DNA of 64,000 nt from Thermoproteota archaeon (GTDB taxonomy: Archaea > Korarchaeota > Korarchaeia > Korarchaeales > Korarchaeaceae): assembly GCA_026986575.1 (NCBI GenBank), contig JALSOH010000011.1:1-64000 (forward strand), in the 5' to 3' direction. A model generated the notes under the pieces. That model saw only the letters and a list, made by a program, of their open reading frames with translations, was not told the origin of the DNA and ran no database searches. Positions within the stretch are counted from its first letter, which is position 1, and every line of letters starts with the position of its first letter. Positions 27,712-40,320 of the stretch are shown here, in pieces. The translations under genes were made by a program, and so were the position numbers.

Positions 27712-28441
27712 ATGCCTTGGACCTCTCCTCTCACTCCTTCGGGTAGATCCGCTCTGGTCCCTGACGGCCCTTGGTACTATGTCTTCGATGCAATTGGGGT
27801 CCACGCCAAGGGAAATCCTGTCAAGCTAAGGGATATGGTTCCAGAAGGGGCGAAACCTAGGGATGATCTGTGGTTCTACGTAGCCGACATAGTCTCCTTC
27901 AGCCCCAATGCTCAGGAGCTTAACTACGAAGCTCCGGGCCTGCTTCAATATAGAGAGGCAGCGATCTTCGTCAGGGTGGACTGGAAGGGGAGGAGTTACG
28001 CATACTGCCCTTTCATGTACGTGGACAGCGACGTTTCCCTGGTCAGGGGGTTGGTAGCGGGCTTTCCCAAGAAGATAGCCCACATAGAGATGACTAGATT
28101 CCACGACCTGTTCAAGCCAGAGAAGTACGGGGGTCTAGCTTATAGGGCCGGGTACGGGCTCATGAAGCTCGTGGTGGAACCTGAGAAGGAGGTGAGCGAG
28201 CTTCCCCTAGACGATTTCGGTAATTGGCTCCTCAGGAGGTATATAAAACCGCTGAATGTGGATGACATGGTCGAATTCGTGCCCGAAGTCCAGTATGGGA
28301 GGATTGTCGAGGGAAGGGGGGACGGTGAAGCTGGGAGGAGGGATCAACGACGAACTGGAAGCCTTCGAACCCGTCGAGGTGCTCAAGGGATACCTGTACA
28401 GCGTGAAGATAGGGGTAAGGGACCTGAGGGTGCTTTACTGA
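27712..28441 (+). CDS. Acetoacetate decarboxylase-family protein; frameshift in the G-run near 28316-28321
   Basis: GPWYY…YREAAI…MYVDSD…GFPKK; true C-terminus in ORF 28256..28441. Confidence 0.8.
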
Positions 28442-28481
28442 GCTTATATATGTTTCTGAGGCTCCGCTGCCCTTATCCAAA

Positions 28482-29274
28482 TCAACCGTTCTCTTCACTC
28501 CTCTTAAGCCACACCACCCTCTGCGGGAAGGGTATCTCCACTCCCGCTTCCTCAAGCGCCTCCTTGACCTTAGAAAGCAGCCAGACCTTGGTCGACCACC
28601 ACTGACTCGTGGGTGCCCAACATCTGAAATTCAGCACCACCGCACTATCCCCATACTCCTGAACGAGCACCTCCGGCGCTGGCTCAGCCAGCACGAACGG
28701 GTGCTGATCAAATAACCTGATCAAAGCCTCTTTGGCTACCTCCAGATCCGAGGAGTATGAAATGCCGATGGGTATGCTTATCCTCCTGACGGGCATGGCG
28801 GAGAAGTTCACTATGGGGCTGGAGAAGAGCTTCTCGTTGGGTATCCTCACCAAGTGGCCGTCCCACGACATGATCTTAGTGGAGAAGATCCCTATCTCCT
28901 TCACGATTCCCTCCACCACTCCCTCGACCCTTATCGCATCTCCAAGTCTGAGCGGCCTGTCCAAGTATATGAAGACCCCGCTCAGGAAGTTCGCGAACAC
29001 GGTCCTGCTGGCAAAGGCCACGGCAATCCCTAACGTACCCCCCAGCTATCAGAAGTCCTGATAGGTCTATGTTGAGGGGTGCGAGTGACGAGACAACCCC
29101 GAAGAAGATTACTGTATAGAATATCAGACTGGTGAGGGGCTTATAGACCGTGGCGGTCATATACTTGGGCAGGACCCTGTTAAGGAACCTCCTAAGCAGG
29201 AACGCCACAATTAGCGTGCCAATCACACCCAAGAGGACTCCCATGTAGGGCAGCAGGGAATCGAGAGATTGCAT
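28482..29274 (-). CDS. mscS: MscS small-conductance mechanosensitive channel; frameshift at the C-run near 29038-29043
   Basis: ANFLSG…PLRLGD…RIPN…GVEIPFPQ; N-terminal TMs in 28876..29274. Confidence 0.88.
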
Positions 29275-29275
29275 G

Positions 29276-29929
29276 TCACCACACCATCCTGTAACCGCTG
29301 GCTATCCTCCTGATCAGGTCAACGGACTTGACGGGAGGGTACACCAGGTCAGCATCCACTGGAGGCTCATTCTTCATCTCAACGTAGAGGTCGTCGCCGA
29401 CGGTAACCTCCACCACCTCGTAGTAGAGGATCCCATCCTTGAAGAATATGTCCAACTCATTCACAGGTATTACGATCCTGTCCACCTCTCTCGGGTTCCT
29501 CACTTTGAAGACAACCTTTACCTTGGCATCTATTCCCCTCAGAGGGGCTTCTGAGGTGGGGCTCTCGTGGTACCTGCAGACTATTCCCTCCGTCGTGGGG
29601 CCATAGAGGGAGTACTTCACCCTGAAGGGAGAAAGAAAGCCGATTATCTTTCCATTTAAAGAGATATCAAGATCGTACGGGGCTGAAATCCATAGTTCTT
29701 GTCCGTCTAGTGGGATTAGACTCTCCTCCATCCTTATCATGAGGTAGTCCGTCACCTTGGAGGGAACGTTCACCGGTGGATTAGGCCGGACCTCCACCTC
29801 TTCGGCGTGAGTGTGGATGTTTCTCGTCACATAATCGTCCTGTAGGGTCAATCTATCATCTTCTAGCGATATCTTGGTTCTGCCGAGTTTGAGGGTATCA
29901 CCTCTCCCCACGGTCCACAACGGATCCAC
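29276..29929 (-). CDS. DUF432-like archaeal protein
   Basis: VKYSLYGPTTEGIVCRY pattern; adjacent to MscS. Confidence 0.65.
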   Translation of the reverse strand: MDPLWTVGRGDTLKLGRTKISLEDDRLTLQDDYVTRNIHTHAEEVEVRPNPPVNVPSKVTDYLMIRMEESLIPLDGQELWISAPYDLDISLNGKIIGFLSPFRVKYSLYGPTTEGIVCRYHESPTSEAPLRGIDAKVKVVFKVRNPREVDRIVIPVNELDIFFKDGILYYEVVEVTVGDDLYVEMKNEPPVDADLVYPPVKSVDLIRRIASGYRMVW

Positions 29930-30099
29930 CCCCTTTATTGGATCCTTAGCTTTTTAGTCATTCGTAAGAGGGATCGCAATCCCTGGTGATTGATATCGCG
30001 CCGATGAACCCCATGATTCCAAGGCCTGACCGATGGAGTACAGACCCTGCGAGGCTAGATGGAGCTTCTTTTAAATCACCCTTGGAATCATCGAGATGG

Positions 30100-30912
30100 A
30101 TGGAGATTGGAACGATCGCCCCAGCGGTGCTGGCGGTGAGCCTTACTGCTCTCCCTACCTCGTTGAGACAGCCCCCTCTCTTGGTCTACTACAGGAGAGG
30201 AGGTATCTCCGGATTAATCGAGAACTTGATCGTTTACTCGGATAGTACTGGGATCTACAGGAGGGATGGTGAGGAGATCAGAGGCAGGGTGGATGGGGAC
30301 ACGGTATCCGCCTTGGAAATGATCCTTAACTTGGTCTCCAAGCGGGGCTTCTCCGAGGTGAGCCCAAGGCTGGGAGCTGTGGATTTCCTCCACCACGAGG
30401 TGATATATCCGAGAAGGGGTGAGAGGTTCGCTTGGGTGGATGAATGGGCCTCTGAGGTGGAGCTGCCTAGTGAGATAAGGGCTCTTACCAAGCTCCTGGA
30501 CCATATCATCTCCATAGTTAGAGGAGTTGAGTGGGTGAACTGGGAGGAGAGCTCCACCGCCTATCTGAGGATGAGGGCCTCTTTGGACGGGCTGGTGGTG
30601 AGGGATGGTGCTACCCTACTGCTGAAGGTGTCGATAGCGTGCTTAGGAGAGGTTGAGATCTCCTACACCCTCCCGACACCTGACTCACCCGATGTGAAGG
30701 TCGGATCCGACGCAAGGATATTGGTGAACTTCTTGAAGGTTGAGGGACGTGTTATCGATGGAGGGAGGAGGAAACTGATCCCAAGGAGGAAACTCGAGAT
30801 CGAAGCATCTGTGAAGCTGAATGATGTGGGAAAAGGTCTCTACTGGTTGAGCGTTCACTTCCCTCCGAGGACCCCGAGCATCGAGGTATCTCTACCACTC
30901 GTGGTCGTGTGA
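30100..30912 (+). CDS. Exported hypothetical protein; N-terminal region resembles emfourin-type protease inhibitor
   Basis: Signal-like N-terminus; YRRGGISG…AVDFLHHEV…LPSEIRAL. Confidence 0.45.
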   Translation: MEIGTIAPAVLAVSLTALPTSLRQPPLLVYYRRGGISGLIENLIVYSDSTGIYRRDGEEIRGRVDGDTVSALEMILNLVSKRGFSEVSPRLGAVDFLHHEVIYPRRGERFAWVDEWASEVELPSEIRALTKLLDHIISIVRGVEWVNWEESSTAYLRMRASLDGLVVRDGATLLLKVSIACLGEVEISYTLPTPDSPDVKVGSDARILVNFLKVEGRVIDGGRRKLIPRRKLEIEASVKLNDVGKGLYWLSVHFPPRTPSIEVSLPLVVV

Positions 30913-31365
30913 GCCAATGTTCCCATCCAGCTCGCATCTAATTACTCTTCCCTAGTAGGGATCGGATCAGAGAAAACCCTACAGAGTGAATGGGAACTAT
31001 AAGAAATAAAGGTTGTGGGAACCCCGACCAGACCTGTGGATCTTATCAAAGATCCCCACGATTCAGCTGATCAGGAACACTAGGGTCAGGAGGATCAAGT
31101 AATATACAAAGTAGAGCTCAAAGGAGACCTCATTCTCAGCTATGCTCCCAAGCAGCTCCAAAGATGGGCAGTGGAACGAACTGATCAGGAGGAAGAGCAT
31201 GCAGGACAGATCTTCCATTTATATTGGAAGGGATCTTCAGGGAAAGAAATGTTCTTGCATAAATCCTTGATATAGCTTCTTCGTAATGAGTAATTTTAGA
31301 AAATAATTATAGAAAAAAAGTTCATAAATTTAAAAATAATTACATATACGCGAAAATGGATACCT

Positions 31366-32076
31366 ATGAGGCCATTCAATCGAGGATGGATTTTGATATA
31401 TGGAATATCCAATGTAGTGGTAGTTGCTTTATTTTTCCTACATTTCATCCTATTCCTGTTGGAAGGACTCCCATCTATTGAGCCTAGAACGGTGCTACCG
31501 CTGCTGATCTTCTCGGTATTGACTTCCTACATACTCCATGAACTCTCTCATTATGTGGCAGGCAGAGCCTTGAATCTCCAGCCTAAGATAGGGGTAGGGG
31601 GAGGAAGGGGAATTTTCAAGAGGTTTCTATACGTGAAGATATGTGATAGTGCTGCATCGAGGACTAGAGCCTCGATTGCCGCCTTGATGGGCCCATCCGC
31701 GAATGCTCTCGCCGTGATAGTAAGCGGATACCTATCCCGATACAACAGTACCGCTCTAATCTTCGGCATTGCTAACTTCCTAGTGCTCACCTCCACGGTT
31801 CTAGTCAGAGGACCTACTTCCGACTACAATGCCGCATTTCTGCCTACCCTGGTTAAGAAGACCTCAGGGAAGATCAGAGCCATCACCATGAATAAGGTGA
31901 AGATCGATACAGTACTGAGCAATGCGATATTCCTATTAGTTGCGATCTCTCCACTCACCAGAGGACTCGAGTACGTTTGGGTGTCCCTAGTACTGTTTCT
32001 GGCGATTATACTATCTACACCTCTCTATGGTCTGACGGCGAGCGTGATAGGTAAGTTGTTGCTCCCTAGGCGGTGA
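31366..32076 (+). CDS. M50 (site-2 protease)-family intramembrane metalloprotease
   Basis: ILHELSH (HExxH) in a TM context; ALMGPSAN; GPTSDYN. Confidence 0.8.
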   Translation: MRPFNRGWILIYGISNVVVVALFFLHFILFLLEGLPSIEPRTVLPLLIFSVLTSYILHELSHYVAGRALNLQPKIGVGGGRGIFKRFLYVKICDSAASRTRASIAALMGPSANALAVIVSGYLSRYNSTALIFGIANFLVLTSTVLVRGPTSDYNAAFLPTLVKKTSGKIRAITMNKVKIDTVLSNAIFLLVAISPLTRGLEYVWVSLVLFLAIILSTPLYGLTASVIGKLLLPRR

Positions 32077-32142
32077 GGTGAAGAACGCCCCATCTATGCA
32101 TAGATTATTCGTGGATCAAGGGTGGGGTCGTCAATGTCTAGT

Positions 32143-32158
32143 CACTTTTTATATTTTT
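32143..32158 (+). promoter_or_regulatory. TATA-box-like element for regulator/precursor transcript
   Basis: CACTTTTTATATTTTT about 30-45 nt upstream of GTG 32189. Confidence 0.5.
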
Positions 32159-32188
32159 GGTCTGTGTTCAGCACTTCGGGTAGTTGAA

Positions 32189-32662
32189 GTGTTCGAGAGG
32201 AAAAGAAGAAGCGAATTAGACATTATAGCAGATATACTAGGCATTCTATCAGAAAAAACGCAGTCCATAACAAAAATAATGTACAAAGCGAACCTTTCAT
32301 ATAATCTCACCAAGTACTATGTGGATAGATTATTATCTTTAGGCTTAATAGAAAAAATAGAAAGAGAATATTGTATTACAGATAAGGGTATCAAATTTTT
32401 AATAATATACTCATTTATAAAATCTGTAATTGGAGAGAAGGTAGAATTTAATTCTAGAATTATACACAGTAACAATATTTCTGAAATTTTAAAGCTTAAA
32501 GAATACCTTGAGTTGCTAAGTGGCAGAGGTCTTGGGGAGGTGAGTCCGTTGGTGGAAAAGGGAACTAGTAAAAGGATAGAGGAGCTGAAGGAGTTAAAAG
32601 AAGTTATCCCCGAGGAGCTCCCTGGATGTGGGCTCTGGGCCTGCGGGACAAGTGAGAGATGA
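32189..32662 (+). CDS. Archaeal winged-helix regulator (HTH_45/ArnR-like), reading in frame into the putative precursor peptide
   Basis: RKRRSELDIIADIL…TKIMYKANLSY…YVDRLLSLGLI…YCITDKG; probable GTG start 32189. Confidence 0.8.
   Translation: MFERKRRSELDIIADILGILSEKTQSITKIMYKANLSYNLTKYYVDRLLSLGLIEKIEREYCITDKGIKFLIIYSFIKSVIGEKVEFNSRIIHSNNISEILKLKEYLELLSGRGLGEVSPLVEKGTSKRIEELKELKEVIPEELPGCGLWACGTSER
32549..32662 (+). CDS. Putative RiPP precursor peptide, 37 aa: MVEKGTSKRIEELKELKEVIPEELPGCGLWACGTSER
   Basis: Strong SD GGGGAGGTGA (32534-32543) 5 nt before TTG 32549 (alternative GTG 32552); acidic/charged leader-like part then Cys/Trp core; directly upstream of a radical SAM/SPASM gene. Confidence 0.7.
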   Translation: MVEKGTSKRIEELKELKEVIPEELPGCGLWACGTSER

Positions 32663-32665
32663 GTG

Positions 32666-32712
32666 AGGGATGTCTCCCTACGATCTCTACCTCAATCTAT
32701 TATCTTTCTTCC
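32666..32712 (+). terminator. Stem-loop plus pyrimidine-rich tract after the precursor
   Basis: AGGGA-TGTC-TCCCT hairpin followed by TATTATCTTTCTT. Confidence 0.4.
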
Positions 32713-32783
32713 ATTTAGATTATGCTTTCATAATTAAATTTTATGTATTGAATTATTAAGGTAGTTGAGATAGGGGTGAATTT

Positions 32784-34019
32784 ATGATAGAGAGCGAGAG
32801 ATCTCTGACCGCTTTTGAGCGGACAAGTAGTACCGTCTTAATAAAGAAAGTAGTGTTTGTAATTACTTACTTGTGTAACATGAGGTGTACATATTGTTAT
32901 TATGGGAATGAAAATCTAAATATATTATCAAATAAGGCGATATTAGGAAAAACAGTTATGAGCTGTGAAGTAGTTGAAAAAAGTTTACACCTCTTCGAGA
33001 ACATGGGACTGCTCGCTAGGGATGTGCTGTATTTCCATATCTTCGGTGGAGAGCCCTCCATGTTCCCCGAAATAATCTACTGCATACACAAGAAAGTCAA
33101 TCAATTAACAAAATCTAGGAAAATTGCTCTTTCTATTTCTACAAACGGGTATTATTTCAGTAAAAAATTCCTAGAGGTTCTGGGTAAAATAGAGAATGTG
33201 GAAGTAACTGTGAGCATAGATGGACCTCAGGTGGTACACGACAACCAAAGAAAGGATATTCTTGGCAATCCTACCTTTGACAGAATCGTTAGTAATGTAA
33301 AAAAACTAGTCAAAATGAGGGTTAATAATAAAATTAGAAGGATAGTGGCTGAAGTAACAGTAACCAAGCATACCCTCGAGTCCGGCCTCCTTCGTACCGT
33401 AGAATTCCTCAGAAATCTCGGCTTCGATGACGTGGTACTCCATGTTGTTGAAGGAGTTAATGAATTGAAACCAGATGTCTCGATGTACTTTAGGAACAAG
33501 ATAGAACTACTGAAAGTTGAGCTGGAGAGGTTACTTTCAAGTGAACCGCCACTCTATTCAGGGACGGTGTCTCTCATCAGAGCGGTCCTCAATCCCAGCA
33601 TCAGACAGTGCGACGCTGGGAGGAGCTTAGTGGCTGTTACACCCGAGGGTGATATATACCCTTGTCAAGGCTTCGTCGGACTAGAGGAGTTCAGGATAGG
33701 TAACCTGGAAGATTTGAATAGTCGCGAAGAGTTCTTGAGAAATGTCCAGAGAGTTTTGAGGAGGATGGGTAACAAACTCATGGATCCTCGGTGCGCCGGC
33801 TGCGCTTTCGTGAGAGAATGCCCAAAGATATGCTTGGCATCAAACGTTTTAGATGGGAGGGATCCCTACCAGTTTAGCGATGAGTATTGCGATGTGATAC
33901 GAAAAGAGGTAGAAATAATTCATGGATTTTTAAAGAGACTTTCTAATAATGTTGGGGAACGGAGGAAGGTCGTGGAAGGCATGAGGAGGTGGGCCTCTGG
34001 TGGTGGCAGTAGTCTGTAG
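32784..34019 (+). CDS. Radical SAM/SPASM-domain peptide maturase
   Basis: CNMRCTYC (CxxxCxxC); FGGEP, STNG, VSIDGP; SPASM CDAG…GDIYPC…CAGC…C…C…YC. Confidence 0.92.
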   Translation: MIESERSLTAFERTSSTVLIKKVVFVITYLCNMRCTYCYYGNENLNILSNKAILGKTVMSCEVVEKSLHLFENMGLLARDVLYFHIFGGEPSMFPEIIYCIHKKVNQLTKSRKIALSISTNGYYFSKKFLEVLGKIENVEVTVSIDGPQVVHDNQRKDILGNPTFDRIVSNVKKLVKMRVNNKIRRIVAEVTVTKHTLESGLLRTVEFLRNLGFDDVVLHVVEGVNELKPDVSMYFRNKIELLKVELERLLSSEPPLYSGTVSLIRAVLNPSIRQCDAGRSLVAVTPEGDIYPCQGFVGLEEFRIGNLEDLNSREEFLRNVQRVLRRMGNKLMDPRCAGCAFVRECPKICLASNVLDGRDPYQFSDEYCDVIRKEVEIIHGFLKRLSNNVGERRKVVEGMRRWASGGGSSL

Positions 34020-34911
34020 AAATTTAACCAAGATCTACAGTAATGGAGTTGTGGCGAACGATTCAATCAATCTAACAGTAAGAAAGGGGATAATCTTCAC
34101 TATTCTAGGACCGAACGGAGCTGGTAAAACAACCTTACTCCGCCAGATCTACACCGAACTCCTACCGACGAGCGGAGAGATCGAGGTCTTCTCGATAAAT
34201 GTCGTTGAGAATCCTATGGAAGTGAGGAAGCTCATAGGGGTCGTGCCTCAGGCTGGTCTCCCCATACCAGAGCTCAGGGTAGAAGAGCACATTAGGTACT
34301 TCTCCCAACTCAGAGGGGTGGAGGATGTAAATTCGGCGGTCTCTTACGCCCTAGAGACTATGGATCTAGAAGATTACAGGGACAGACTGGTTATGGAGCT
34401 CTCCGGAGGATTAAAGCAAAGAGTGCTAGTGGCCACTGCCATAGCCACGAAGCCCAAACTACTGATACTCGATGAACCCACTGTAGGCATGGATCCAATC
34501 ACCAGAAGGAGGTTTTGGAGGAAGATGGAGGAGCTTAGGGGGGAAGGAAGAACGATCCTGCTCACTACCCATTACGTGGATGAGGCAGAGACCGTGTCTG
34601 ATGAAGTAGCTATTCTCAATAAAGGAAAGATAGTCCACAAAGGCAGACCGGCGGATTTCAAGTCGCTCCTGAAGCTCAAAGCTTATGTCATCGTGAAGGG
34701 GAGGAACATAGATCCTTCCATCTTCGTGAATTACGGGAAGATCGTTTACTTCGATGACTACACTCTCAAGCTCGGACTGGAGGAGATAGACTTCGACCTC
34801 CTTAAGGAAATCAGGGATTCCATTCTCAAAAGAGGATTCGTCTTCACGTTCAAGGAGGCTTCACTCGAAGATGCTTATGTCCAGCTGGTGGGAGGTGACC
34901 TGATTGGTTAA
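34000..34911 (+). CDS. ABC-2 exporter ATP-binding subunit
   Basis: GPNGAGKT, LSGG, LILDEPT, TTH. Confidence 0.95.
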   Translation: MVAVVCRNLTKIYSNGVVANDSINLTVRKGIIFTILGPNGAGKTTLLRQIYTELLPTSGEIEVFSINVVENPMEVRKLIGVVPQAGLPIPELRVEEHIRYFSQLRGVEDVNSAVSYALETMDLEDYRDRLVMELSGGLKQRVLVATAIATKPKLLILDEPTVGMDPITRRRFWRKMEELRGEGRTILLTTHYVDEAETVSDEVAILNKGKIVHKGRPADFKSLLKLKAYVIVKGRNIDPSIFVNYGKIVYFDDYTLKLGLEEIDFDLLKEIRDSILKRGFVFTFKEASLEDAYVQLVGGDLIG

Positions 34912-35641
34912 GCTCCTCAGGGACACCTTAGTGATTGTAAAGATAAGGTCAAGCTGGATAAGAAATCAGCCCACCCTCTACTTGGGAACTTCATTTTTCA
35001 TACCGATCGTCCTGTCGCTTCTGTTCTGGATGATGGGCATGGAGATGACTGAGAGAATACTCTTGGGATCCATGGTCTACTCGCTAGTGTATCCCGCTGT
35101 AGCAACTGTTGGCAAAAGTGTTGCTTATGATAAGATAAAGGGTTCCTTCACCCTCTTTTCTACCTCTCCCATCTCCCCCTATGCCTATATATTGGGTACC
35201 GCCCTGTCAACTTTGCCCTCAAGCCTCATACCTTTCCTCATGTTCATGCTTGCATCGACCCTGATCTTCGGACTGAATCTAACGGTGATATCTTTTATAC
35301 TCTCTTTAATGATCCTAGTTTTTGGTGCCCTCTCTCTCAGCTTCCTAGGGTTCTCATTGGGCTTTAGGCTAAGAGATCCCAGGAGCTCAGATGTCATAGT
35401 AGATATGATCTGGGCCTTGATGATATTCCTCTCTCCGGTCTATATACCTTGGTCACGGATACCTGAAATTGTAAGACCTGTCTCCCTCGCGATGCCGACC
35501 ACTTACTTGGCGGAATTACTAAATTTGGTGCTATGGGGTAGAACATTCCTCAGCACTTCAGTCCTAGTTGGAGCCAACGTGGCGTTTTTCTCATTCTTCG
35601 CAATGATCGCCCTCCGTTATGGTAAGATGAGGGAGAGCTGA
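34904..35641 (+). CDS. ABC-2 exporter permease
   Basis: About six TMs; FLSPVYIP…MPTTY; GGAGGTGA SD. Confidence 0.9.
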   Translation: MVKLLRDTLVIVKIRSSWIRNQPTLYLGTSFFIPIVLSLLFWMMGMEMTERILLGSMVYSLVYPAVATVGKSVAYDKIKGSFTLFSTSPISPYAYILGTALSTLPSSLIPFLMFMLASTLIFGLNLTVISFILSLMILVFGALSLSFLGFSLGFRLRDPRSSDVIVDMIWALMIFLSPVYIPWSRIPEIVRPVSLAMPTTYLAELLNLVLWGRTFLSTSVLVGANVAFFSFFAMIALRYGKMRES

Positions 35642-35643
35642 CT

Positions 35644-36663
35644 ATGATTCGGATTCACGGTACTAAAAGATACGCCAAAGAAACTAGGCGGATTCTAGGG
35701 AGAAGACTAGAGAGAGTAATAGGGAGGTTCACTGGAATAAGTGAGATCCTCATACCTCCGAGTATCGGTAAGATTGGGAGGAGCAGCCTCTTCTCAAGGT
35801 TATCACCATTACTATCGCGCTCAAACTTAAAATCCCGAGCGTTGAACACATCTAGGCTTTTTTACTGTATAGGTGAAGCTTTCTCCAAGTTACTTGGCAT
35901 GGATGAATCTCTGGTTAGGTTAAGTGGTGAAATCTCCGCTAGCTTAGCAGCTAAGAATCTGCTAGTGGACTGGATTGCGGATGAATCAGGTAAGAGTGAG
36001 GTTTTAGACATATTGGTAGAGGGCATGGAGTGGGAGGAGAGCCTGAGGATCATCTCAAACGATATGCTAGGGAACATATTAGGGACTATAATAACTATTA
36101 GGAGGTTAATTAAATCAAGAAATGAATTTTACGCTCGAATATTTACAAACAAAGCTATTAAATCTATCAAATATTTCAAAATATCTAGCAGGTGCTCCCC
36201 CTCAAGTGAGCACCTCTCGCCTGAATGGATATTAGACAAAGCCCGGCTTCCCATTGAAGAGATATTTGCGGCGATAGCTGGTCTATCCGCGGATCTGGGA
36301 TACAGAAACTACTTATCGATAAATGATAAGTTAAGGTATGGTTTCTCTATCTTCGCCGTCATAGATGATTTGGCCGATCTCCCTAAAGACATCCTTAGAG
36401 GTCAATGTAACTATGTCATCTATTACCTCTATGATAACGGTGTATTGAGGTTTTACAAAGGAAGAGGAAGAGGTCCTAGCGATGAGGAACTGGAGATCGC
36501 CTTCAATAAGGAGTTCGTTGAAATAATTTCCTGGCTATTGGATTACTATCTAGATATTTACACCGATATGGTCCGTAAACTATTCGAATTTGATAGATCG
36601 ATCAGAAACTACTTCAACTATATACTCTATTTGGAGATGATTAACTCCTTGGGGAAGCTATGA
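35644..36663 (+). CDS. Class I isoprenoid-synthase-fold protein (possible peptide prenyltransferase, ComQ-like)
   Basis: Degenerate first Asp motif LVDWIADE and second motif AVIDDLADLPKDILRGQCNY; helical-looking sequence. Confidence 0.55.
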   Translation: MIRIHGTKRYAKETRRILGRRLERVIGRFTGISEILIPPSIGKIGRSSLFSRLSPLLSRSNLKSRALNTSRLFYCIGEAFSKLLGMDESLVRLSGEISASLAAKNLLVDWIADESGKSEVLDILVEGMEWEESLRIISNDMLGNILGTIITIRRLIKSRNEFYARIFTNKAIKSIKYFKISSRCSPSSEHLSPEWILDKARLPIEEIFAAIAGLSADLGYRNYLSINDKLRYGFSIFAVIDDLADLPKDILRGQCNYVIYYLYDNGVLRFYKGRGRGPSDEELEIAFNKEFVEIISWLLDYYLDIYTDMVRKLFEFDRSIRNYFNYILYLEMINSLGKL

Positions 36664-36684
36664 TACTGGTTTCTCAGAAATCCG

Positions 36685-36815
36685 ATGAGTGATGACAGGA
36701 GGAAGAGGATGCTAGAGGACCTGAGGAAGCTGAGGAGGGAGGAGGAGAGGATGAAGAGGTTGGAGGGAAGATAGGTGAACGGAAGGAGTTACGCGGTTGA
36801 TGCGAGCGTTCTCTG
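36685..36815 (+). pseudogene. Truncated vapBC-like remnant at the island's right border
   Basis: MSDDRRKRMLEDLRKLRREEERMKRLEG followed by YAVDASVL (PIN start), then breaks off. Confidence 0.45.
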
Positions 36816-36943
36816 TGCACGACTCCTCTAGCTAAATTCCCCACAATCTCCCTCTCTCTATTGTCGTCGAGGGCTATGCTCTCCTCTTTATCGACTCAAT
36901 CGATTGGAAGACTCACATATCGCGCAATGCAGATCCAGCCCCA

Positions 36944-38806
36944 ATGTTTTTTATGATGCTCTCAGAAGGAAATGGTAAAGTAGGGCTGTTGATTTGGATG
37001 TTTTATAAATCTCTCCTTCTGGCTTTCATAGTTCTCGCCATGTTTATTCAGCCCCTCGCCATTAAGGCGGACCCTCAGAACTCGACCTTTACAGGCCCAC
37101 CCCCACTGCCTGAAAACCCTGGCACATTGACGGGCGTACCTCCAGACAAGTGTAGTTCCCAGAACCTTGATAACATCTACGACTCATATCAGAAGGCTGA
37201 AGAGATGTCCTCACAGTACCCCTGTTACAAGTACTTGGCGGAGCACTATCACTACAAGTATCTCCGGCTCAAGTGCCTGTGCCAAGGGGGTTGCGATAAG
37301 GAGGCCGTAGCCTCATACTACCAAAAGGAAAACGCTTATTATGAGAAGTTTCACACGCTCTTCGAAAATGGCAAGTGCGGACAGATTACGGCTCCGCCCA
37401 CAGACGTAGTAACCACAACAGAGGGGGCTTCCACTCCTGGAAATAACTCCGATCCTCAGCTCATCTCAACTTGGGTTTTCCCTAGGGAGGGAACGGGAAA
37501 CCAGGTCTATAATTATTCTGTAAGCCTCACCGACCCAGATAATGATCCTGTGATGGTTCAGCTCTGCATACACGTCCTAGACGCTGGATGGCAGTGCTTC
37601 GACGCCCTTCAGGTAATGGGAGAGGGAACTGCCAGCTGGAACATGACATTCGTGAACGCCACTCCTGGGACTTATGAGTACAGGATTTACTATGACGATG
37701 GGAATAACAGGGGGGCTTGGGGTCCCTACGGTGGGCCTGTAGTGAAGGCCAGTTTGGTAAACCCAAATGGGAGTAAGTTTGGAGCAGATGAAAGTAATCC
37801 TGCTACAGAGGGAAATGAATCCAGTACGAATAACTCCGATGATGTCACTGGAGCGGTTATAGTCGGGGTATCCGCGGCAGCAGGTGTTGCAATTGCCAAG
37901 AAGGCTAAGGGAAGGAGGAAAAACAAGGAGGAGAGGGGAGATGAGAAATCCTCCCTTGACCAGTTCACGCAATCCGTGGAGGATGCCAACAAGTGGGCCG
38001 GAAAGACGAAGCCCGTGACGGACGTAGTGAGCCAGGCTGGCGCCTATTCCTCAGAGAAGGGGCTGGATAAGGGAATTAGAATGGGTGCAGATAGTTGGAA
38101 GAACGCTGAGAGGAAGAGAATAGTGAAAAAGTTCAGGGAATTCAGGAATGGAAAGAGCGTGAGGCAAAGCGTGTTAAGGGGAGGGGGTAAGGACGGAGGA
38201 GGTTTCTGGGACCCAAAGAAGTATAAGAAGCTCAAGAGACTAGGTAGAAGGGCAGTTAACCTTCCCAAGAAATACAAGACTATTAAGAACTTAGCTAATA
38301 AGGTCAGAAGTGCCTCAAAATTCGCCTCGAAGTACATCGGGGCGGCCTCCATAGGCCTTTCCACATATGACGGGGTGAAGAGCTACAACAAATACATCGA
38401 TGAGAATAAGGACTTCGTGAAGGACCATCCGATCATGGGAAGGGCCCTAGGAGCCATGAAGGCCTTTGGCGAACAGGTCATAATATACACCGTGACCAAG
38501 AACCCGGTCATAGGTCTCCCAGATGCCGTGATAGGGTACGCGACCAACGGCAGGGTGTCCGTGGCCAGGGCGATTCAGGATACGGAGGACTTCGTTAGCA
38601 AGGGGATAAGATCCATGGCAGATGCCTACTACGGCAACCAGTACTCGGACTGGAGCGAGGGATATGCCAATCACTCCTCGATAAAGAAGCACCTTTCCAT
38701 GCTGAACGATCCCGACTATGTAAGAAAGCTGAAGGCTAGGGGTTGGACCGACGAGAGGATAGCGAGGGTGAGGAAGAGCATGGAGGAGGCCCTAGGGATG
38801 AGGTGA
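36944..38806 (+). CDS. Large exported/membrane protein: Cys-rich N-domain, Ig-like domain, TM, basic helical C-terminal region
   Basis: Signal peptide; six Cys; DPDNDP Ig-like motif; hydrophobic GAVIVGVSAAAGVAIA then a K-rich region. Confidence 0.7.
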   Translation: MFFMMLSEGNGKVGLLIWMFYKSLLLAFIVLAMFIQPLAIKADPQNSTFTGPPPLPENPGTLTGVPPDKCSSQNLDNIYDSYQKAEEMSSQYPCYKYLAEHYHYKYLRLKCLCQGGCDKEAVASYYQKENAYYEKFHTLFENGKCGQITAPPTDVVTTTEGASTPGNNSDPQLISTWVFPREGTGNQVYNYSVSLTDPDNDPVMVQLCIHVLDAGWQCFDALQVMGEGTASWNMTFVNATPGTYEYRIYYDDGNNRGAWGPYGGPVVKASLVNPNGSKFGADESNPATEGNESSTNNSDDVTGAVIVGVSAAAGVAIAKKAKGRRKNKEERGDEKSSLDQFTQSVEDANKWAGKTKPVTDVVSQAGAYSSEKGLDKGIRMGADSWKNAERKRIVKKFREFRNGKSVRQSVLRGGGKDGGGFWDPKKYKKLKRLGRRAVNLPKKYKTIKNLANKVRSASKFASKYIGAASIGLSTYDGVKSYNKYIDENKDFVKDHPIMGRALGAMKAFGEQVIIYTVTKNPVIGLPDAVIGYATNGRVSVARAIQDTEDFVSKGIRSMADAYYGNQYSDWSEGYANHSSIKKHLSMLNDPDYVRKLKARGWTDERIARVRKSMEEALGMR

Positions 38807-38810
38807 TCCG

Positions 38811-39740
38811 ATGAGACTCACGAATGAAGAGTTGGCGGCTGCCTTCGCCGCTTTGAATGAGAGCCCTTGGCTCCTCCTCTCCGTGTGGGGGTCCTTCCGG
38901 AGGGCGAGGGAGGGGGTCGAGGGCCTCTCCAGCAGAGGGCTGATCAGTGAAGGAAGGCTCGAGGAGGTTGCAAGCCTCATAAGGACCTTATCAAAACCGA
39001 AGCTGATGGCTGATGTCTTCACCGTAGACTTCGAGGGTGGAACCATGAGCAGGGAGTCCTATGTAGCAGGAGAGGGGACTTTCCTTCTCAGGATAGGGAA
39101 CGAGTTCATCTGGGCTGAAAGATCGGAGCTCAACCTCCTTGACCGCCCCACCTCCGTCATGAGGCCAATCCTCTTGGATGGAAGGGAGCTAATGGTCCTC
39201 TTCCTCATACTTACCATGGACATATACAGCTACGATGTTCCCGGTCTGGCGCCATTCACCGCAGACGATGTGCAGAAAAGGGTTGAGGTGGGATCTCACA
39301 TCCCCCTGAACGCCCAGATAATCCTGATAGGTGGTAAGAGAGCCCCGAAACTCAAGGTGAAGGACGTGAAAAAGGTGCTCAGATCCCTCGTCGAGAAGGG
39401 AGTGCTCATATCCCACGGGAATTCCCTCTCCATATCTGAGGAGTTCCTCCCGGCGGCCCTTGCCCTAGGCTCCCCCGACAGGATCAGGATAATATCGATC
39501 ACAGCGGACCCCGAGTCAGATGACCCCGACCTGAGGACGATCGCCATATACGAGCTGGGAAGCTCCTCGGTGGCCATGGACATCTTGGACGGGGGGAAGG
39601 GAATCGTGGTGATAGGAGGCCCCCTAAGCGATATCCCTGGCTATGCAGGGGAGGTTCACGGGAAGATCTGCCCGAATTGCGGTCATGTGAACAGGGGAGA
39701 TGCCAAATTCTGCATAAAATGCGGAACGAGACTGGCGTGA
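38811..39740 (+). CDS. Hypothetical protein with C-terminal double zinc ribbon
   Basis: CPNCG…AKFCIKCG; GAGGTGA SD; 4 nt after the previous gene. Confidence 0.75.
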   Translation: MRLTNEELAAAFAALNESPWLLLSVWGSFRRAREGVEGLSSRGLISEGRLEEVASLIRTLSKPKLMADVFTVDFEGGTMSRESYVAGEGTFLLRIGNEFIWAERSELNLLDRPTSVMRPILLDGRELMVLFLILTMDIYSYDVPGLAPFTADDVQKRVEVGSHIPLNAQIILIGGKRAPKLKVKDVKKVLRSLVEKGVLISHGNSLSISEEFLPAALALGSPDRIRIISITADPESDDPDLRTIAIYELGSSSVAMDILDGGKGIVVIGGPLSDIPGYAGEVHGKICPNCGHVNRGDAKFCIKCGTRLA

Positions 39741-39969
39741 ATGGATCTAGAAGGGGAAACTGCCTAATAATGAACTCCAATATGGCTTTCCCATCGCCTA
39801 TGAGGGGAAAGCAACATGGGAAGAGCAGGATCTTGAGAAATGCTGTAGGGACGGGAGTGGCTGGCTTACGAACGAGTGGAGATTAGCGGGCTGAGAGATG
39901 TAAAGCAGTCGATCTTGAAAGATCTCTTGGATAGTCAATAGGGGCCTTGGGTTAATCCATAATGGCCAA

Positions 39970-40320
39970 GGGATATATGCGCGATTCAGAGTCCTGGGGT
40001 CTTCGAGGAAGGAGGGAATGTCTTCCTTAAGCCTCCGGCAGTCTATAGGAACCTCGAGAAGGGCTCCAAGCTCCTGTTCCATGCTTCCGGTAACATAAGA
40101 AAGAGAGTGGGGGAAGGGACTGCCGAGAAAGTCGAGTTGCTGGAGCAGGAGGAGGCGGTAAGGAAGTACGGGGATAATCTGTTTCTGGATCTGGGTGAGG
40201 TAAGTGAGTACCTGAGGGGAAAGAAGAGGGCCTCCGAGGTACTGGTGATAGTGCTAAGAGATGAAGTGAACGGCTCGCTTCCATGGCACCCGCACGATAC
40301 GGTCATTATAAGATGCTCCC
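39970..40320 (+). pseudogene. DUF365/PUA-like remnant
   Basis: KGSKLLFHASG…VGEG…KYGDNLFLD…EYLRG…VLVIVL; N-terminus broken. Confidence 0.5.

Follow-up and report, generated by a model that had tools for sequence, protein, structure and literature searches.

The sequence analyzed here, referred to throughout as the window, is a 64,000-nucleotide (nt) stretch of a Korarchaeaceae genome (contig JALSOH010000011.1, assembly GCA_026986575.1, positions 1 to 64,000), and the element in question is a 157-codon open reading frame (ORF) encoding an Sso10a-type winged helix-turn-helix (wHTH) protein with a C-terminal tail that contains two cysteines and one tryptophan. We consider it moderately probable that the last 45 or so codons of this ORF are a precursor cassette of the kind used for peptides that are ribosomally made and modified after translation (RiPPs), fused in frame to the Sso10a-type gene, and that the tail is modified by the radical S-adenosylmethionine (rSAM)/SPASM enzyme encoded next to it. 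This reading starts from features that are observed directly, namely the anatomy of the locus, the tail's conservation, the linkage of the genes for the tail, the rSAM enzyme and a 339-amino acid (aa) protein in two loci, and the location of the cluster in an accessory island. A preliminary description of the sequence had proposed that a precursor peptide with its own ribosome-binding site lies hidden within a 194-aa regulator ORF and is the probable rSAM substrate. Coordinates of all features are collected in Table 1.

The 194-aa frame, which opens at 32078, is simply the longest possible ORF, and HTH_45 homology begins at its residue 43. In public databases the protein starts at GTG 32189, comprises 157 aa and ends at 32662; its homologue (P0008) aligns from this start, and a TATA-like run of T and A at 32147–32159 was noted by eye ahead of it. 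The change of character after the wHTH that had been described is real, and the length is corrected here to 157 aa. The protein belongs to Pfam HTH_45 (PF14947; 78 bits against a cut-off of 25.5) and to NCBIfam Sso10a_fam (NF053610; 81.4 bits against a cut-off of 60). AlphaFold2 (AF2) modeling gave pLDDT (predicted local distance difference test) values of 88–96 over residues 10–70 and below 55 beyond residue 88, and the top Foldseek matches were the Sso10a structures 1r7j, 1xsx and 4hw0 (for 1r7j, E 9.7e-6, target template modeling (TM) score 0.79, 106 aligned columns). Residues 1 to about 110 are a whole Sso10a-family protein and the final 45 or so residues are an appendage, because the matched Sso10a chains in the PDB (90–98 aa) and HTH_45 relatives without a tail (108–110 aa) end at about this point. 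These relatives were found among about 15 billion proteins, the set from which the closest homologues given below were also drawn. The wHTH module is probably a working DNA binder.

Base composition changes within the ORF, from a GC content of 0.24–0.29 over 32225–32524 to 0.53 over 32525–32674, where the GC skew is +0.46 to +0.50 (G over C). The reported passage from AT-rich to purine- and G-rich DNA was thus reproduced, and it extends to the GC content of third codon positions (GC3). G or C occupies 32 of 115 third positions (28%) before residue 115 and 25 of 42 (60%) after it, with a Fisher P value of 3.6e-4 that should be considered optimistic since the point was picked post hoc. Maximum likelihood places the GC3 change point just behind residue 115, at the first base of a Shine-Dalgarno (SD)-like motif, and near-equal candidates lie at residues 104–116. 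By unit, GC3 is 0.29 in the wHTH part, 0.57–0.58 in the tail or cassette, and 0.61–0.65 in flanking host genes. The GC step is not due to the amino acids of the tail, because the shift sits at third positions. Three boundaries, the end of Sso10a homology (residues 105 to 112, approximately), the GC3 jump and the SD-like motif with its start codons, fall together at residues 105–121. Such a pattern is the apparent signature of an in-frame union of two units that differ in history, a gene for a regulator and a small gene led by an SD, the latter minus its upstream stop codon. Note that the AT-rich block runs through the wHTH gene into the rSAM gene, of which it takes in the 5′ half (GC3 0.40 over 32784–33400, against a host-like 0.51 in the second half); the tail is a GC-normal islet within this block.

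Only one real homologue of the 157-aa protein was recovered (P0008; 159 aa, 58% identity). It is likewise an in-frame fusion of wHTH and tail, with no stop codon and no frameshift. Identity between the two proteins is distributed unevenly, at 47/76 in the wHTH, 14/22 at residues 81–102, 7/31 in the linker (residues 103–133) and 21/24 (88%) in the last 24 residues; the binomial probability of at least 21 identities in 24 is 0.0014 against the 57% average. Residues C147, W150, C152 and E156 and the preceding ELKEV-x-PEELPG are invariant in the two sequences. The closest homologue of the rSAM enzyme (P0002, 51% identity), the sole homologue of the 339-aa protein (P0014, 38% identity) and P0008 each lie on a single contig of 6944 nt, and from this identical length we infer that all three share one contig and that the same pairing of tail and rSAM genes occurs in a second locus. 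The tail was found on no HTH homologue unlinked to an rSAM gene, an arrangement which the preliminary description had named as an outcome that would count against it; the sole other copy is linked to a homologous rSAM gene. Its expectation that standard gene callers would miss the peptide is borne out by the public-database form, in which the tail is hidden inside a 157-aa “regulator.”

Further searches for the tail gave few matches. When the last 50 aa served as a phmmer query against 1.84 billion representatives, three came back, namely the protein itself, the EELKELKE part of a 5841-aa coiled-coil repeat protein, and one weak match. No match was obtained at E 10 when P0007 and its tail were searched with phmmer against 14,672 ORF fragments from 90 distant-maturase loci (L005–L094), none when the tail peptide was sought elsewhere in its own genome, and 0 when a back-translated PGCGLWACGT pattern was sought in viral contigs. 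Three other HTH_45 matches in the genome have no such tail (ORFs were inspected at two). One HTH_45 gene without a tail (89 aa; L096, G000:C1, 1489–1758) lies 60 nt upstream of a radical-SAM-like ORF (1820–2251, CTYSCIYC) at a contig end, and an HTH_45 gene therefore stands beside a radical SAM gene twice in this genome. A distant HTH_45 protein of 108 aa (P0010, on a 1550-nt JGI contig) has at its end a C-X4-C of another sequence, LCSRGIC, which could hint at a wider habit of Cys tails in this regulator family. DNA identical to the locus is present in contigs of hydrothermal-vent metagenome runs, where X2 is identical across the locus; runs X3 and X4 hold only short identical pieces and unrelated partial matches.

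The rSAM gene begins 121 nt after the end of the tail, so that the tail is encoded beside the maturase as is general for RiPP precursors. The full set of seven cysteines expected from the consensus spacing of SPASM domains is present and invariant in three sequences (C276, C294, C337, C340, C346, C350 and C369), and the Pfam SPASM score is 22.0 against a cut-off of 21.5. Among curated families the best match is PapB (NF047865; 150.7 bits against a cut-off of 340), followed by SCIFF (TIGR03974; 116 against 425), QhpD (TIGR03906; 101.5 against 453), and then anSME and others; by these scores the enzyme belongs to neither the PapB nor the SCIFF family. Because its radical SAM motif begins at residue 31, leaving no room, the enzyme is predicted to lack a RiPP recognition element (RRE). 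About 22 residues precede the core, alignment to the models of SCIFF, QhpD and CcpM starts at positions 82–91 of the model, and no PqqD-like domain was found by Pfam in the cluster proteins. The tail has two cysteines, as opposed to the six in about 45 residues of a SCIFF peptide, and it contains the Cys-X3-Asp/Glu motif of PapB substrates once, as the invariant C152-G-T-S/K-E156. This Cys-Glu pair was absent from the preliminary description and fits the closest enzyme family. When a collection of genome contigs was scanned with the rSAM alignment, 10 relatives were found among 81 pattern matches, all with at most 27% identity over most of the protein apart from a 29-residue match at 50%; the same scan of metagenome contigs (at least 594 stretches) left 80 loci, all with at most 31% identity.

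A complex of the rSAM enzyme (as an alignment) with tail residues 108–157, three 4Fe-4S clusters and S-adenosylmethionine was then predicted. The score was 0.59 (0.59, 0.65 and 0.56 in individual runs) and that of the best of three controls was 0.03, a result classed as weak support. The mark used is passed by 58 solved complexes in a set of 80 and by 2 mismatched pairs in a set of 110; only 7 of those 80 complexes, but both of the passing mismatches, do so with scores of at most 0.60. The runs share at least 34% of contacts, and partner pLDDT is at least 48. The make-up of the cluster points in the same direction, with a SPASM maturase that is nearest to peptide maturases and is flanked by genes for an exporter and a putative protease. 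Given a distinct conserved unit, its linkage to the rSAM gene, its position where a precursor gene would be expected and the weak pass in complex prediction, we judge that the tail is probably the rSAM substrate, as had been proposed; the accompanying view of it as an independently translated peptide is plausible.

The SD-like motif GGGGAGGTGA is followed by 5 nt (GTCCG) and then by in-frame TTG 32549 and GTG 32552 (codons 121 and 122). The permease gene downstream in the cluster starts with the same geometry (GGGAGGTGA, CCTGA, TTG 34904). Within the motif, GGAGGTGA pairs without mismatch with the final 8 nt (TCACCTCC) of the 16S rRNA of the same genome, the 3′ end of which is GGATCACCTCC. Translation from TTG 32549 yields a 37-aa peptide that terminates in PGCGLWACGTSER ahead of the stop codon TGA 32660–32662. 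Motif, TTG and permease-like spacing were all found as first described, and so was a 37-aa peptide with C-X4-C around one Trp. Two other C-terminal signals were considered for this sequence and rejected by eye, an archaeosortase-type sorting signal (the hydrophobic stretch has only 6 residues) and a CaaX box (the Cys is not 4 residues from the C terminus).

Counts of the motif were made on 1673 genes, defined as the longest ORFs of at least 120 aa after filtering for overlap, which should be considered a crude set since no real gene caller was used. There are 358 copies of GGAGGTGA in the genome. Within the ORF-genes 164 are on the sense strand, and 19 of these (11.6%) are followed at 3–9 nt by an in-frame ATG, GTG or TTG; a back-of-envelope expectation from codon frequencies is about 15%. 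The 126 cases of motif plus start codon genome-wide divide into 54 apparent true gene starts, 19 deep in open frames (the present site included), 50 that open short ORFs, and 3 that fit none of these classes. The motif serves real starts in this genome, yet its internal occurrence is not rare. The coincidence of boundaries and the conservation of the tail do exceed chance. RNA folding around the SD-like motif and start codons is no better than that of shuffled sequences (z +1.14), nor is that of a hairpin directly past the stop codon (z −1.13). No Rfam match was obtained over 30500–37500 at E 0.1, and no tRNA was found over 20000–45000.

Internal initiation that gives a free peptide is plausible, somewhat short of probable. 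A stronger version, which we regard as unlikely, holds that the free peptide of 36–37 aa is the physiological precursor and that the fusion is incidental, a stop codon having been lost between formerly separate genes. The perfect 8-nt SD with spacing identical to that of the permease start argues for it, as does the resemblance of 54 of the 126 motif-plus-start cases to real gene starts. The SD also sits at the GC3 change point just past the end of the Sso10a module, the RNA around it is unstructured, and the GC3 of the tail is near that of host genes, which fits separate and heavy translation. In addition, E-V-x-x-V in P0008 aligns with E-V-x-x-L, where L is encoded by the TTG. More fully, R-E-V-L-R-V of P0008 stands opposite G-E-V-S-P-L, so that V occupies the TTG position with E-V two residues earlier; this could encode the same layout of SD, spacer and start codon, with which the protein alignment is compatible. 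A point against this version is that the fusion is made regardless. Because no stop codon parts wHTH from tail in either locus, the 157-aa protein should certainly be produced as the frames are read. Furthermore, an internal SD with a start codon is not enriched over the rough expectation (19/164), and over its first 13 residues the free peptide is poorly kept, with only 4/13 identical in P0008. The perfect complement to 16S rRNA thus upholds one half of the claim that the peptide has its own ribosome-binding site; separate translation, its other half, is at best plausible, given a motif that occurs inside genes at about the chance rate and a tail of which both copies are fused.

We think it very unlikely that the tail is instead a part of the regulator, a CX4C redox switch or a metal or Fe-S switch with four cysteines per dimer that controls the neighboring operon, in which case the rSAM enzyme would act elsewhere or add a regulatory mark. 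Such a switch would be in keeping with a wHTH that scores above the Sso10a cut-off and is probably functional, with the fusion of the tail in every known copy, and with the Cys-ending P0010; the tail-less HTH_45 gene that adjoins another radical-SAM-like gene in this genome is a further point in its favor. It fits poorly with the linker of about 30 residues, non-conserved and modeled with low confidence, that parts the tail from the domain, and with the GC3 step and SD, which favor a separate origin of the tail. Moreover, the gene set is typical of RiPPs (RRE-less SPASM maturase, exporter and putative protease), no other Cys-containing candidate substrate is found in the cluster, and the complex of rSAM enzyme and tail passed, if weakly.

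Two small ORFs in the spacer directly upstream of the rSAM gene, one of 29 aa that is rich in aromatic residues (32670–32759) and one of 24 aa (32663–32737), were considered as substrates in place of the tail, which would then be unrelated to the enzyme. Aromatic residues are crosslinked by some rSAM/SPASM enzymes such as WprB, which counts for these ORFs. The spacer is AT-rich and is probably the rSAM promoter, neither ORF has a correctly spaced SD (as judged by eye) or any Cys, and the 88% conservation of the tail would be left unexplained, so that we consider this highly improbable. No other small ORF containing Cys was found between cluster genes. That the SD-like motif, start codons and tail are chance features of an overlong regulator is scarcely credible; SD plus in-frame start is common inside genes, but the tail is kept at 21/24 against 7/31 for the linker, its gene is linked to conserved rSAM and 339-aa protein genes in two loci, and three boundaries coincide.

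To return to a fused precursor cassette, its parts, all in frame behind the Sso10a-type gene, would be the SD, the start codon and a short acidic stretch that resembles a leader and closes with PG, followed by the core CGLWACGTSER. The chemical steps, proteolysis and export that we infer are as follows. The tail would be produced as the C terminus of the fusion, perhaps additionally as a free peptide of 36–37 aa from the internal SD and TTG or GTG, and the RRE-less rSAM/SPASM enzyme would use it as substrate. As a first guess, the enzyme would most likely form a PapB-like thioether from the Cys sulfur to a side-chain carbon between C152 and E156 (ranthionine type), and C147 may form a second link. 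The 339-aa protein, with its putative class-I isoprenoid-enzyme-like fold, may prenylate the product; by analogy with ComQ and PalQ, the invariant Trp150 would be the obvious acceptor. Release of the product may fall to the HExxH membrane protein, and its export, or protection of the cell, to the ABC-2 pump. The wHTH module may serve in DNA binding or as an oversized leader or docking domain. Both roles would be combined if a working Sso10a-type protein doubled as a RiPP precursor, with the wHTH or linker docking the rSAM enzyme, Trp prenylated, the product cleaved by the HExxH protein and exported, the regulator consumed or reset, and the cassette also translated alone so that two routes supply different stoichiometries. 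We consider this full scheme quite unlikely.

A very divergent ComQ/PalQ-like prenyltransferase is a possible identity for the 339-aa protein. Residues D241–D245 (DDLAD) are invariant in it and its homologue. By features, the ESM Atlas puts it nearest to the cluster “Class 1 isoprenoid biosynthesis enzyme” (0.95, 197 shared features), and the Atlas model has TM scores of 0.65 to terpene synthase models and 0.57 to squalene synthase models. Polyprenyl synthases also make up most of the 48 listed Foldseek matches. By sequence, the protein is a member of neither the polyprenyl synthase nor the ComQ families. Note that the Atlas copy of the HExxH protein begins at residue 10, and its start codon may be 31393.

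Several points weigh against a RiPP cassette modified by the adjacent enzyme. The SD with an in-frame start is, by itself, at chance level inside genes of this genome. The tail does not form a free-standing small gene, as a RiPP precursor would be expected to, and lies in frame within the larger ORF in both copies; on a regulator that forms dimers, a CX4C tail could just as well be a redox or metal switch. The family has two members, so that all conservation comes from one comparison. The rSAM enzyme scores under every curated family cut-off, and the complex score lies within a band where a pass is deemed wrong in most cases, save for a pairing that was already likely. The core has two cysteines and one acidic partner, unlike multi-motif ranthipeptides. 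The protease assignment of the HExxH protein is weak, with a match to DUF3267 “putative zincin peptidase” (E 7.9e-4, 20.2 bits) under the cut-off of 27.1 and with M50 peptidase leads in the ESM Atlas at 0.86–0.88 only, all below 0.9. For the 339-aa protein, Pfam gave nothing even at E 10 and the PDB no sequence or profile hit, and Foldseek with its poor AF2 model (pLDDT 48.1) placed polyprenyl synthases first at E values of at least 0.03 and TM scores of about 0.33, with 0 of 500 matches at E 0.001.

Table 1. Features of the tail locus and its surroundings (positions in the window)
Feature	Positions	Strand	Basis
17-nt direct repeat, left copy; candidate island boundary	31186..31202	.	16/17 identical to right copy
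Membrane protein, 236 aa, HELSH (HExxH); candidate leader/tail protease	31366..32076	+	Translation; weak zincin/M50 leads
157-aa ORF: Sso10a-type wHTH (1 to about 112), variable linker, conserved Cys/Trp tail	32189..32662	+	HTH_45, Sso10a_fam, AF2, Foldseek
Internal SD-like motif GGGGAGGTGA, codons 116–119 (G-E-V)	32534..32543	+	16S 3′-end complementarity; GC3 change point at its first base
Embedded 37-codon cassette plus stop, hypothetical free precursor; alternative start GTG 32552	32549..32662	+	Translation; GC3
Conserved acidic leader-like stretch, residues 134–146, K/E-ELKEV-I/L-PEELPG	32588..32626	+	Alignment
Putative core, residues 147–157, CGLWACGTSER; C-X4-C and C152-X3-E156	32627..32659	+	Alignment; PapB motif
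Radical SAM/SPASM maturase, 411 aa; CX3CX2C at C31/C35/C38; seven SPASM Cys; predicted to lack an N-terminal RRE	32784..34019	+	Pfam, NCBIfam, alignment
ABC transporter ATPase (DrrA-like)	34000..34911	+	Pfam, NCBIfam
ABC-2 permease; TTG after GGGAGGTGA, 5-nt spacing	34904..35641	+	Pfam; sequence
339-aa all-alpha protein, invariant DDLAD, putative class-I isoprenoid-enzyme-like fold; candidate prenyl-transfer tailoring enzyme	35644..36663	+	Atlas, Foldseek
17-nt direct repeat, right copy	36696..36712	.	16/17 identical to left copy

The cluster is an accessory island of roughly 5.5 kb and six genes. A homologue of the rSAM enzyme (E ≤1e-20) was present in 1 of 61 genomes searched, 20 congeners among them, and one of the HExxH protein in 1 of 36, in each case only the genome of origin. 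The flanking genes are distributed across the genus (the left gene in 11 of 21 genomes, the right gene in 5 of 21). In one congener (G011) a single contig carries both, separated by about 4.3 kb of DNA with unrelated ORFs, and the flanked site is a variable cargo spot. The ORFs at the congener locus (L108; G011:C57, 3120–7418) are of 303, 282, 131, 87 and 73 aa and appear by eye to encode an epimerase-like protein, a membrane protein and PIN/AbrB-type toxin-antitoxin pairs. The two copies of the 17-nt repeat are spaced by 5510 nt and bracket precisely the six genes, with AT-rich DNA at both inner edges. The motif is absent from L108, and the repeat may be a chance match. Outside the island, 36944–38806 encodes a protein of 620 aa in which a hydrophobic segment at the N terminus, a region rich in Cys and a Lys-rich middle can be told apart; it has no Pfam match and is 88% identical in one congener.

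Clusters of rSAM/SPASM enzymes and RiPPs, leaders that are protein domains, and protein substrates are already known. In the open literature, no paper was found that joins Sso10a with radical SAM enzymes, and none that joins SPASM enzymes with a RiPP precursor fused to a DNA-binding domain; for RiPP precursors fused to a helix-turn-helix, the titles listed (12 of 16) all concerned other subjects. With supplements excluded, nothing was found there on a wHTH module carrying a core, on an RRE-less maturase or on an archaeal isoprenoid-fold partner. Genome-mining tools for RiPPs seek small free-standing ORFs and RRE domains. This locus offers neither, and its core sits in a gene that any pipeline would call a transcriptional regulator. 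If the reading holds, the locus would be a simple test case for one mRNA that delivers a precursor both fused and free, and an rSAM crosslink, if indeed paired with an isoprenoid-fold enzyme, would make an unusual combination of tailoring steps. Doubtful as the doubling of regulator and precursor is, it would provide the first winged-helix “leader” and a peptide output that uses up or resets its own regulator. For archaea, rSAM RiPP clusters are described as predicted to be widespread and uncharacterized, with almost no product characterized (PMC12144867), and a rare candidate from a hydrothermal-vent archaeon would be added to them.

The closest enzymatic parallel is PapB, which, as described in PMC9413430, acts on CX3D/E motifs and links the sulfur of the Cys to the beta or gamma carbon of the Asp or Glu. 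The locus resembles PapA/PapB (freyrasin) in having a radical SAM/SPASM maturase, in the family that scores best for it, and in the invariant C152-X3-E156 of the core. It differs in that PapA has six motifs and the present core a single CX3E, and in that the score is far under 340. Here, furthermore, a DNA-binding protein of 157 aa would supply the precursor as its tail, the enzyme appears to lack an RRE, the organism is an archaeon, and a putative isoprenoid-fold enzyme is present. For a thioether formed in a protein rather than in a free peptide there is precedent in QhpC/QhpD, where a SPASM rSAM enzyme forms Cys-Asp/Glu thioethers in the gamma subunit of quinohemoprotein amine dehydrogenase; the present enzyme is well under the QhpD cut-off, and no amine dehydrogenase genes are present here.

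Prenylation of a RiPP has its parallel in PalQ/PalX, for which an isoprene-synthase-related enzyme is reported to prenylate a Trp of the RiPP and a protein-like (NHLP) leader of PalX to enhance modification (PMC10853753). The classical case is described as the farnesylation of the ComX Trp by ComQ (PMC13731918, PMC5331326). Shared with these systems are a short C-terminal peptide, one key Trp, and a nearby putative class-I isoprenoid-fold enzyme with a DDxxD motif. The 339-aa protein differs in having no sequence match to ComQ, PalQ or polyprenyl synthases, and resembles them in fold and features only; Trp150 is 8 residues from the C terminus, and an rSAM enzyme is also present. Unlike for ComX/ComQ, no two-component sensor gene was noticed among the ORFs of 28000–40000 (eight were scanned against Pfam). 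With Sso10a the likeness is confined to the N-terminal 110 or so residues, which fit the family model and match 1r7j, 1xsx and 4hw0; the PDB entries lack the extension of 45 aa or so with its Cys/Trp tail.

The nearest archaeal counterpart is CrpA/CrpC of Methanococcus voltae, described as a SPASM rSAM enzyme that forms thioether crosslinks at C-terminal Cys residues of a protein-sized substrate, the extra N-terminal domain of which aids engagement (PMC13692751). As portrayed there, it shares with the present locus an archaeal SPASM rSAM enzyme and a protein-sized substrate with an extra N-terminal domain. CrpC differs in belonging to TIGR04463 (the present enzyme scores 70.7 against a cut-off of 525) and in having an RRE, and CrpA, in the account given in that source, is Cys-rich with ten 17-residue repeats and no DNA-binding domain. 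If the tail is indeed the substrate, a DNA-binding fold would join the protein domains known as leaders, so far NHLP, Nif11 and the CrpA N-domain.

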